Positions 16,050 through 17,328 of a stretch of 25,459 nucleotides of DNA are shown one piece after another. Location: NCBI GenBank assembly GCA_045805065.1, contig JBJMMA010000221.1, forward strand, positions 1 to 25,459. The letters run 5' to 3'. The stretch comes from Bdellovibrionia bacterium (GTDB lineage: Bacteria; Bdellovibrionota; UBA1018). Below the pieces are notes generated by a model that ran no database searches, was not told the DNA's origin, and worked only from the letters and a program-made list of their open reading frames with translations. How positions within the stretch are numbered: the stretch's first letter is position 1; each line of letters begins with the position of its first letter. The translations under genes and the position numbers were made by a program.

Positions 16050-17274
16050 GATTTTCCAATCTTCCGTTTACGACCCAGTAATGCTTGCCGATGAGAAACG
16101 AATCGTCCGTCGTCGTGACGAAGACTTGCAGATCTTTCTCAGCCAGGAAGCCCAACAGGAAATTTCGTCTTTCCCGATCCAGCTCGGATGAAAAATCATC
16201 CAACAAAAAGATCGGGCGATGCCCCGTTGCATTCCGGAAAAGCTCTACTTCTGACAGTTTAAGTGCCAGAAGCGCCGATCGAACTTCACCTTGGGAGCCA
16301 TGCCCTTTCAGGATTTGCTCTCCCAGGAAAAATGTCCAATCGTCGCGGTGTGGACCTACCAGCGAGTGCCGGGATTTCCATTCTGCTGCCTCAAGTGAGG
16401 CCTGCTTTTTCCAGAAAGCTTGTTCTAAAAGTTCTAATGAAGGCAGAGGCCCATGTCCAGTGAAATGTACTCGTGATAAGCTATCGGAATCTATAGATAA
16501 ATTTTCTATTTTTGGGACCCAATTTGAGACGTAAACGAGTCTCAGAAATGGCTGGCGAGGAGCTATCTGATGCACTGTTTCATTTAGGCGCTCAGCCAGG
16601 CGATTAACCCACTCAAGTCGTTTATACGTGAGATAAGCAGCGTAGCGGCTCATGGGTTCGGTGAAGCCTTTGAGAAGTTCAGGTGAAGGACGATCGCTTT
16701 CTTTCAAAAGCGCGTTCCTTTGCTCCAGGACGCGCTGATACTTTTGGAGGCCTTTGAGGTACTCAACGTCCTCTGCAGCGATCACACGATCAAGATAAGA
16801 GCGTCTCGTCGCGGGATCCGTTCGGACCAGATCATGATCAGCCGGGTTAAAGACCACACAGTGAAACCCAAGCTCAAAGTTTCCAAAACGCTGGCTGAGG
16901 TAGGAAGTTGAGCTTTTGTACGGCTTTCCGTTGATGAAAGCGACTTTGCTTGCGCGTTGATGTTGTGGATCGGTGAAAGCGAACGCAACTTTGAGCTCTG
17001 TGGACCAGTTATCCACAAAGTTATCCACACTGTCCACATTGACGACGTTCTCAAGCTTGCAAGAAATCTCAGCTTGAGTGGCTCCCCATTGAATGACTTC
17101 AGGGGTTTTTGAGCCTCGAAAGGATCGTAATGTGGATAAGTATCCTAAGGCTTCCAGAAAGCTGGTTTTTCCTTGGCCGTTTTTCCCTAAGAGAAAGTTT
17201 AAACTCGGATCAGGATCCAGTTCGCTTTCGACAATGTTCCGGAAATTCCGAAGTCTAAGCGTTTTGACTTTCAC
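16039..17274 (-). CDS. recF: DNA replication/repair protein RecF
   Basis: NFRN, Walker [20 protein letters not shown] and Walker [14 protein letters not shown] start; lies between dnaN and gyrB. Confidence 0.95.
17009..17038 (+). promoter_or_regulatory. DnaA-box triplet inside recF
   Basis: TTATCCACA (17009), TTATCCACA (17021) and CTGTCCACA (17030). Confidence 0.7.
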
Positions 17275-17298
17275 ATTTTCACTTTTTAGAGGGCACTT

Positions 17299-17328
17299 TG
17301 TGGATAGTGTGGATAACTTTGTGGATAT
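17299..17328 (-). promoter_or_regulatory. DnaA-box triplet in the dnaN-recF spacer
   Basis: TGTGGATAG (17299), TGTGGATAA (17308) and TGTGGATAT (17320). Confidence 0.8.

Follow-up and report, generated by a model that had tools for sequence, protein, structure and literature searches.

The window analysed here is a stretch of 25,459 nucleotides (nt) from a Bdellovibrionia bacterium, namely contig C221 (JBJMMA010000221.1) of a 4.22-Mb metagenome-assembled genome (MAG) that is 94% complete. Its minus-strand gene order, read from the origin of replication, is oriC–dnaN–recF–gyrB–fabH–gyrA, and partly inside recF and partly in the spacer between dnaN and recF there lies a cluster of predicted binding sites for the initiator protein DnaA. 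In particular, a triplet of DnaA boxes written into the coding sequence of recF is mirrored by an inverted copy in the spacer. Throughout, a DnaA box is a 9-mer matching TTATCCACA, and a double box is two such 9-mers in the same orientation, 2–3 bp apart, with ≤2 mismatches in all. The features concerned, in window coordinates, are the following:

18540–19046, no strand assigned: oriC, with 15 boxes of ≤1 mismatch, including a four-box array at 19003–19046; the box field spans 18598–19046
17334–18440, minus strand: dnaN (sliding clamp), with three DNA_pol3_beta domains
17275–17333, minus strand: dnaN–recF spacer, 59 nt here vs 8 nt in the sister species (genome G001)
17299–17328, minus strand: spacer triple-box module, an inverted copy of the internal one, made up of boxes at 17299–17307 (1 mismatch), 17308–17316 (perfect) and 17320–17328 (1 mismatch)
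16039–17274, minus strand: recF, 411 amino acids, GTG start, intact and under purifying selection (Pfam SMC_N, E = 4.6e-19)
17131–17139, minus strand: single perfect box between the two modules, encoding L-S-T of a conserved RecF motif and identical in the sister species
17009–17038, plus strand: internal triple-box module, inside recF (codons 79–89 of the minus strand), with two perfect boxes (17009–17017 and 17021–17029) 3 bp apart and a third (17030–17038) that abuts them and has 2 mismatches
17000–17008, minus strand: degenerate opposite box with 2 mismatches, in conserved W-S-T codons

A mirrored DnaA-box cluster at recF

A repeat search delimited the inverted repeat as arms at 17007–17038 and 17299–17330, each of 32 nt, 30/32 (94%) complementary and 260 nt apart. 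The mirrored triplets that a preliminary description of this DNA had reported, matching at 28/30 nt with 260 bp between them, are therefore where they were said to be, and the repeat even extends by 2 nt. The second arm falls in the dnaN–recF spacer, since recF reaches up to 17274 and the coordinates of dnaN run from 17334 to 18440. The same description had placed a further perfect box between the arms, which is indeed present at 17131–17139, and a degenerate box of opposite orientation near 16999; the latter exists at 17000–17008 but is weak, departing from the consensus at 2 positions here and at 3 in the sister species, and is probably not significant. As a whole, the cluster (17000–17328) packs 7–8 boxes into 330 bp, 1.3–1.6 kb from oriC and on the side of its unwinding element. 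Two double boxes belong to it, each made of boxes 3 bp apart: one at 17009 without mismatches, the other at 17308 with 1 mismatch.

Such an accumulation of boxes is not expected by chance. The window contains 28 boxes with ≤1 mismatch vs 3.1 expected, a number that none of 100 shuffled sequences reached, and chance is thereby excluded as the source of the enrichment. Perfect boxes number 38 in the 4.22 Mb of the genome, and 16 of them lie within 15787–19046. Double boxes are rarer still: the genome has ten, comprising six in oriC, two at recF and one each on contigs C235 and C259, and the internal pair at 17009 is the only perfect double box outside oriC. No other boxes outside oriC in this genome are predicted to be as strong DnaA sites as those at recF.

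We assign oriC to 18540–19046 because this region combines a dense box field with trios and an AT-rich stretch, a cumulative GC-skew minimum that falls nearby, and conservation before dnaN, the box field being kept in most of 30 relatives. At the end nearest dnaN (18540–18614), a double box with an 8-nt offset is accompanied by an AT-rich stretch, TAG-type trios and a short GC cluster, the AT-rich unwinding stretch and trios occupying 18560–18597; this end resembles the basal unwinding system. In the oriC of locus L011, a run of CTA repeats stands beside a double box.

The internal triplet and the RecF loop

The host gene of the internal triplet is a recF. Its product is an SMC_N-type ATPase with Walker A, signature and Walker B motifs, encoded at the dnaN–recF–gyrB position, it matches the solved RecF structure 5z67 (E = 6e-39), residues G30, K36, S327-Q328-G329 and D359-D360 are invariant across 30 sequences, and an AlphaFold2 (AF2) model reached a predicted local distance difference test (pLDDT) score of 86.8. 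Relative to the sister species, nonsynonymous divergence (dN) is 0.033 and synonymous divergence (dS) is 0.71. For comparisons of recF loci we used 30 relatives at first and then 33 more from the same family.

The internal arm encodes RecF residues 79–90, which form the tip of a low-confidence β-hairpin. These residues occupy a loop between strands 67–75 and 91–102, and the model gives a pLDDT <50 at 79–86. The loop aligns with a shorter hairpin of 5z67 and is the sole hypervariable stretch of the RecF N-terminal domain; the 28 other aligned relatives are all gapped there, and it is the longest among the 30 aligned, by 3–11 residues. The proposal that the internal copy sits in a variable loop of RecF thus finds circumstantial support in hypervariability among relatives and low model confidence. 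The loop point also accepts insertions: in a natural RecF variant, P0122, 10 extra residues stand directly ahead of the peptide that the boxes encode.

Among the recF loci compared, the internal triplet is confined to the window and the sister species, whose RecF is 95% identical. A 32-nt run identical between the two covers the triplet, and the third internal box of G001 has 1 mismatch rather than 2, resulting in a 29/30 match to the reverse complement of the spacer arm of the window. Over the peptide, 35/36 nt are the same in the two species. Whereas residues 62–78 differ by five amino acid changes between them, residues 79–91 differ by none, and the single DNA difference in 79–91 is synonymous. 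A protein search for RecF returned one cluster at 90% identity with 12 members. The 12 residues are unchanged in all cluster variants that cover the loop (11/11), and the residue just before them is V, E, Q or S.

The peptide itself is unusual. Three consecutive VD[NS] units occur in RecF only, among 2603 long open reading frames (ORFs), and even a double VD[NS] is absent in all 119 other RecF homologues (≤71% identity). From codon usage, the probability of two perfect boxes given S-V-D-N-F-V-D-N is 0.24 × 0.28 × 0.614 × 0.506 × 0.28 × 0.614 = 0.0036. The box at 17131–17139 (+135 in recF) is written in rare codons, TTA (4.5%) and ACA (12.8%), and the probability of that box given L-S-T is 0.0012. 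In a different genus (locus L054, genome G056), recF carries at +236, the same loop position, a one-mismatch box of a variant type used in oriC; this locus has no spacer boxes, and the match may be due to chance.

Two perfect boxes also lie in the neighbouring gyrB gene:

15787–15795 and 15850–15858, plus strand: perfect boxes in the 5′ part of gyrB, encoding the VDN motifs EIVDNS and IHVDNS

Codon usage yields a box with ≤1 mismatch at a rate of ~0.34 per VDN, and ~14 of 30 relatives carry one in gyrB. As this frequency fits codon usage, we rejected the gyrB boxes as part of the element and regard them as by-products of conserved VDN motifs.

The spacer copy and box-bearing spacers in relatives

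The spacer triplet occupies half of the 59-nt dnaN–recF spacer and is absent from the sister species. The spacer lengths of 59 and 8 nt therefore indicate an insertion of ~51 nt in the lineage of the window. Contigs of run X1 match 17168–17529 with 0 differences, and run X2 also covers the spacer copy without differences, X1 and X2 being runs that may derive from the source sample or study. Two contigs of run X3, which belongs to another study and is ~96% identical, span 17227–17388 including the triplet, and the lower-identity contig ends of X3 also read as short spacers. (Note that X3 and X4 are contigs, in which depth and the breaks at 17011/17017 are uninformative on copy number and uncovered parts are no evidence.) The spacer copy is not an assembly artefact, an explanation that the recovery of the triplet in a separate study rules out. 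In one natural strain variant a single nucleotide is missing at 17309, which gives the spacer module the 8-nt offset found in oriC. The two copies had been described as one pair; both are real, but they differ in age, the internal copy being shared by the genus and the spacer copy being a species-level insertion. We considered a mobile element as the source of the spacer and rejected it, the part outside the boxes having no other copy in the genome (longest matches ≤13 nt). Searches for further genomes of the genus gave two loci at 64% identity in a metagenome scan and the sister species only in a genome scan.

Box-bearing spacers recur elsewhere in the family. We tallied 63 loci, in 62 of which the spacer could be measured, and found boxes in 3/62: the window (59 nt, 3 boxes), G004 (52 nt, 2 boxes) and G089 (169 nt, 3 boxes). 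Spacers of <40 nt carried boxes in 0/57 cases. According to tool labels the three carriers are different genera, and in a congener of G089 (G088) the dnaN and recF genes overlap, with no box. On a quick RecF tree three changes are needed, and well-supported branches force at least two. The spacer module of G089 and one of the modules in the G089 oriC agree at 24/25 nt. In G004, recF itself contains, ~240 nt further downstream, an oriC-style box pair in inverted orientation, against a background of 244 boxes with ≤1 mismatch in 4.1 Mb. The spacer boxes of all three lineages read TTATCCACA on the coding strand; this shared orientation fits a directional role, although three cases prove little. 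In another family of the order (locus L020, genome G031), three boxes fall within a 62-nt segment in another part of recF, at +563 to +624, and many more across dnaN and gyrB, the genome density being ~0.28/kb. The 50-nt spacer of locus L017 was considered as a decayed copy and rejected, since allowing 2 mismatches still revealed no box in it.

The layout box–box–CTT–box also occurs in the oriC of this genome (18674–18702) and at two extragenic sites. Box modules and clusters away from the window, on other contigs of the same genome (G000), are as follows:

C235:14832–14860: triple-box module L035, just after the terminator of mreB
C201:47327–47355: triple-box module L037, in the 76 nt that separate a GST-like gene from a convergent 660-amino-acid ORF without a Pfam hit
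C181:2964–3072: extragenic cluster L036, three perfect boxes with spacings of 78 and 22 nt, flanked by the 3′ ends of an lptF/G-like gene and a rodZ-like gene

The box spacing of L036 is identical in G001 (C64) and G022 (C95), and non-origin box clusters are therefore maintained in the family. A module similar to the triple-box ones is found in the sister genome at G001:C52:1520–1548.

Downstream of recF the window carries the following genes, recF overlapping gyrB by 11 nt and gyrB overlapping fabH by 4 nt:

13584–16049, minus strand: gyrB
12577–13587, minus strand: fabH-like gene
10019–12550, minus strand: gyrA

On the other flank of oriC there is a 599-amino-acid ORF (19134–20933, plus strand) with no Pfam match. 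The dnaA gene is unlinked from oriC and dnaN: a complete copy (531 amino acids, with DnaA_N, Bac_DnaA and Bac_DnaA_C domains) lies on contig C55 (locus L038, 1922–5385), where it is followed by the gene for the large subunit of ribonucleotide reductase. We found no DnaA-box cluster upstream of dnaA on C55, and the sole box with ≤1 mismatch in 3000–8000 of that contig sits inside the reductase gene. Within recF, codons 268–291 (16400–16473), with their 11.7 synonymous sites, are free of synonymous change relative to the sister species, the gene-wide proportion of synonymous differences (pS) being 0.46, and overlap a low-confidence segment of the RecF model (residues 257–274); they could hold an embedded signal for gyrB, or the absence of differences could simply be chance.

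Candidate roles of the recF cluster

The reading we favour, with a probability of about 0.55, is that DnaA binds the recF cluster, a young accessory set of sites close to oriC, and that the cluster serves as a sink for DnaA and/or as a roadblock to transcription. That DnaA binds here, and that binding has either effect, we infer from the anatomy, rarity, distribution and loop position of the boxes described above. DnaA dimers or oligomers would occupy the 3-bp-spaced double boxes cooperatively, as in oriC. The region is duplicated seconds after initiation, and an occupied cluster would soak up DnaA right after local replication, exerting negative control of initiation of the kind, and by the logic, of the DnaA-box clusters (DBCs) of B. 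subtilis. Because the boxes sit inside the dnaN–recF–gyrB–fabH–gyrA transcription unit, the same complex could impede read-through, hindering RNA polymerase as it passes from dnaN into recF–gyrB–fabH–gyrA. As to history, the internal module would have arisen in the ancestor of the genus, in an indel-tolerant loop, which would make the VD[S/N] residues the translation of the boxes; the spacer module would be a more recent gain of this species, most probably made by copying the internal one in inverted orientation.

DnaA reportedly acts as a transcription roadblock at asnC and guaB; at recF, too, the boxes have a promoter upstream and an operon around them, and DnaA bound there could halt RNA polymerase. 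Roadblocks by DnaA in transcribed regions are noted in PMC11317965, where the E. coli guaB site is listed as unbound in the chromatin immunoprecipitation sequencing (ChIP-seq) data reported there. The same ChIP-seq data indicate that E. coli DnaA binds box pairs 2–3 bp apart and that a consensus box standing alone often goes unbound; upstream of polA and nrdA there are double boxes whose spacer is 'aag', and a region within dnaN was bound by DnaA (PMC11317965). The recF units share the orientation, the 2–3-bp spacing and the 'aag' spacer of the E. coli double box as described by Stringer, Fitzgerald and Wade (2024), and the cluster as a whole, with four perfect and two one-mismatch boxes, falls in that class; unlike the E. 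coli double box, the recF units have a third box abutting at 0 bp and are doubled as an inverted repeat, and their binding is a prediction. In Bdellovibrio bacteriovorus, which belongs to the same phylum-level group, DnaA boxes 7 and 8 at the 3′ end of dnaA were footprinted by DnaA (Makowski et al. 2016, PMC5124646), and E. coli DnaA bound the Bdellovibrio oriC (PMC5124646). Like the recF boxes, those boxes lie in a coding region beside oriC; they adjoin oriC and are treated in that account as part of it, whereas the recF boxes are one gene away and dictate a repeated peptide.

The closest analogue among non-origin clusters would be the DBCs of B. subtilis, which are proposed to restrain initiation by binding DnaA, an effect shown by deletion (Okumura et al. 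2012, PMC3245932). Both have consensus boxes outside but close to oriC; consistent with DBC-like placement, the recF cluster (17000–17328) is parted from the oriC boxes (18598–19046) by dnaN, and no trios or AT-rich element adjoin it. The DBCs, as described there, are intergenic and deletion-tested (PMC3245932), whereas the recF cluster is half-coding and species- or genus-specific, and its role is a prediction from sequence.

The preliminary description had also offered datA and DARS (DnaA-reactivating sequence) of E. coli as models. The consensus of integration host factor (IHF), WATCARNNNNTTR, was not found on either strand of 16950–17400, in a scan that is a weak test. datA requires an IHF site and, as described in PMC5742627, its essential boxes share one orientation; the boxes of each recF triplet do so too, but the IHF match is missing. 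In the core of DARS, boxes II and III are oriented oppositely to box I (PMC5742627), whereas the three boxes of each recF triplet point in the same direction and the sole opposite neighbour (17000–17008) is degenerate; the cluster is not DARS-like because it has no opposed box I. What remains in common with datA and DARS1/2 is that all are non-origin box clusters, with no sequence homology between them. The preliminary description knew of no report of such an arrangement. Its general class is in print: DBCs (PMC3245932), DnaA boxes in coding DNA (PMC5124646, PMC11317965) and double boxes are already known. In the literature searched we did not find a box array that spells a protein repeat, is mirrored in the adjacent spacer, and belongs to a junction, dnaN–recF, with recurrent gains.

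We raise more tentatively, as a possibility that could well prove wrong, a broader interpretation of the same observations. Here, selection for initiator sites and not protein function would have written 12 residues of RecF, and the Bacteriovoracaceae would repeatedly move oriC-type modules beyond dnaN (into the spacer in three genera and here also into recF), building an accessory or bipartite-like DnaA platform, still evolving, that brackets dnaN and tunes initiation and/or expression from the recF–gyrase operon. The related claim that the amino acids exist to carry DNA sites finds circumstantial support in the codon probability of 0.0036, the 12 residues fixed in 11/11 variants and the tolerance of the loop, but not in the synonymous test: over codons 79–91 there is 1 synonymous difference from the sister species vs 3.0 expected (P ~0.19), so that depressed dS, which had been proposed as a test of dual coding, is not significant across two genomes, a comparison of low power.

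Besides that non-significant result, several observations weigh against the accessory-cluster reading. Codons 268–291 of recF lack synonymous differences (0 in 11.7 sites). The invariance among 11 variants may reflect protein-level constraint or short divergence, the rough probability of no variable site among 12 being ~0.09. As the gyrB boxes illustrate, VDN motifs yield consensus boxes without selection on the DNA. The arrangement is lacking in 60/63 relatives and is dispensable for that reason, and two of the five spacers of ≥40 nt have no box (L017, 50 nt; L064, 44 nt). No sigma-70-like promoter was found in 16800–17600, and one unrelated site was found in 16000–18700. The sink and roadblock roles cannot be told apart here, and the organism is an uncultured MAG, in which the binding, expression and replication effects of the cluster are predictions from sequence.

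Among the alternatives, we would take most seriously, while still judging it unlikely, that the cluster is a neutral by-product: a box encoded by VDN was amplified by slippage, an inverted copy reached the spacer by template switching near the origin, and DnaA may bind incidentally with nothing being selected. The loop is an indel hot spot whose length varies across all 30 aligned relatives and which, in one variant, gained 10 residues right beside the triplet; the units resemble 9- and 12-nt tandem repeats; and the arms match at 30/32 without extended flank similarity, all of which a neutral origin would explain, as it would the non-significant dS test. It accounts less well for 12 residues and 35/36 nt that are frozen while the flanking loop changes at a gene-wide dS of 0.71, for the gain of box arrays, and not of random DNA, in the same spacer in three independent lineages, for the between-arm box written in rare codons, or for an architecture equal to that of oriC modules. 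The joint codon probability of 0.0036 weighs against the notion that the VD[S/N] repeat was selected for RecF function in the genus, with the boxes arising as an accident of codons as in gyrB. Here the invariance of the peptide in 11/11 variants, together with the chance appearance of perfect boxes at the VDN motifs of gyrB, would be expected; however, the model shows a disordered loop, one that is hypervariable across the family, and such selection would explain neither the inverted copy outside the coding sequence, nor the arrays in the spacers of two other genera, nor the rare-codon box at +135. We consider selection on the peptide very improbable.

An RNA-level role is improbable too, if slightly easier to credit than selection on the peptide. 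The arms of a dnaN–recF transcript would pair with each other over 29 bp, forming a long-range stem around the recF start that either lowers recF translation or makes an RNase III site parting dnaN from recF–gyrB. Indeed, the minimum-free-energy fold of 17350–16980 (minus strand) holds the stem, at −123.4 kcal/mol (z = −6.6, 0/100 shuffles as good). Any inverted repeat gives such a stem automatically, however, and in the sister species the internal arm has nothing to pair with. The independent cases, G004 and G089, have DnaA boxes in common with the window but show no long complementarity to recF. An RNA stem would not require its arms to be consensus DnaA boxes, as both arms here are, and there was no Rfam family match, only a sub-threshold chance hit. 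Least probable of all, in our estimation, is a bipartite origin in which the cluster downstream of dnaN works with the upstream cluster through DnaA looping of dnaN, like oriC1/oriC2 or incAB/incC around dnaA. Its geometry does resemble the known cases, in which a gene of ~1.1–1.4 kb lies between two clusters (as given in PMC4403523), and oriC-type modules have been gained repeatedly at the dnaN–recF site. Against it, there are no trios or AT-rich unwinding element by the satellite boxes, those at 18560–18597 belonging to the upstream cluster in oriC, and a cluster absent from 60/63 relatives cannot be essential for initiation.

What the cluster means for this family turns on DnaA binding. If DnaA does not bind, the locus is a caution for origin predictors, as consensus box clusters would then be possible in coding DNA one gene from oriC. 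If DnaA does bind, the internal triplet would be a clear natural case of a DNA-site array dictating protein sequence. The locus would, moreover, capture in evolutionary real time how an origin acquires replication-control sites in its vicinity, with one set shared by the genus, another gained by the species, and parallel gains in two genera, and it would offer a comparative handle on the origin of non-origin sinks such as datA and DBCs. Should this be true, the dnaN–recF junction would look like a preferred landing site for box modules.

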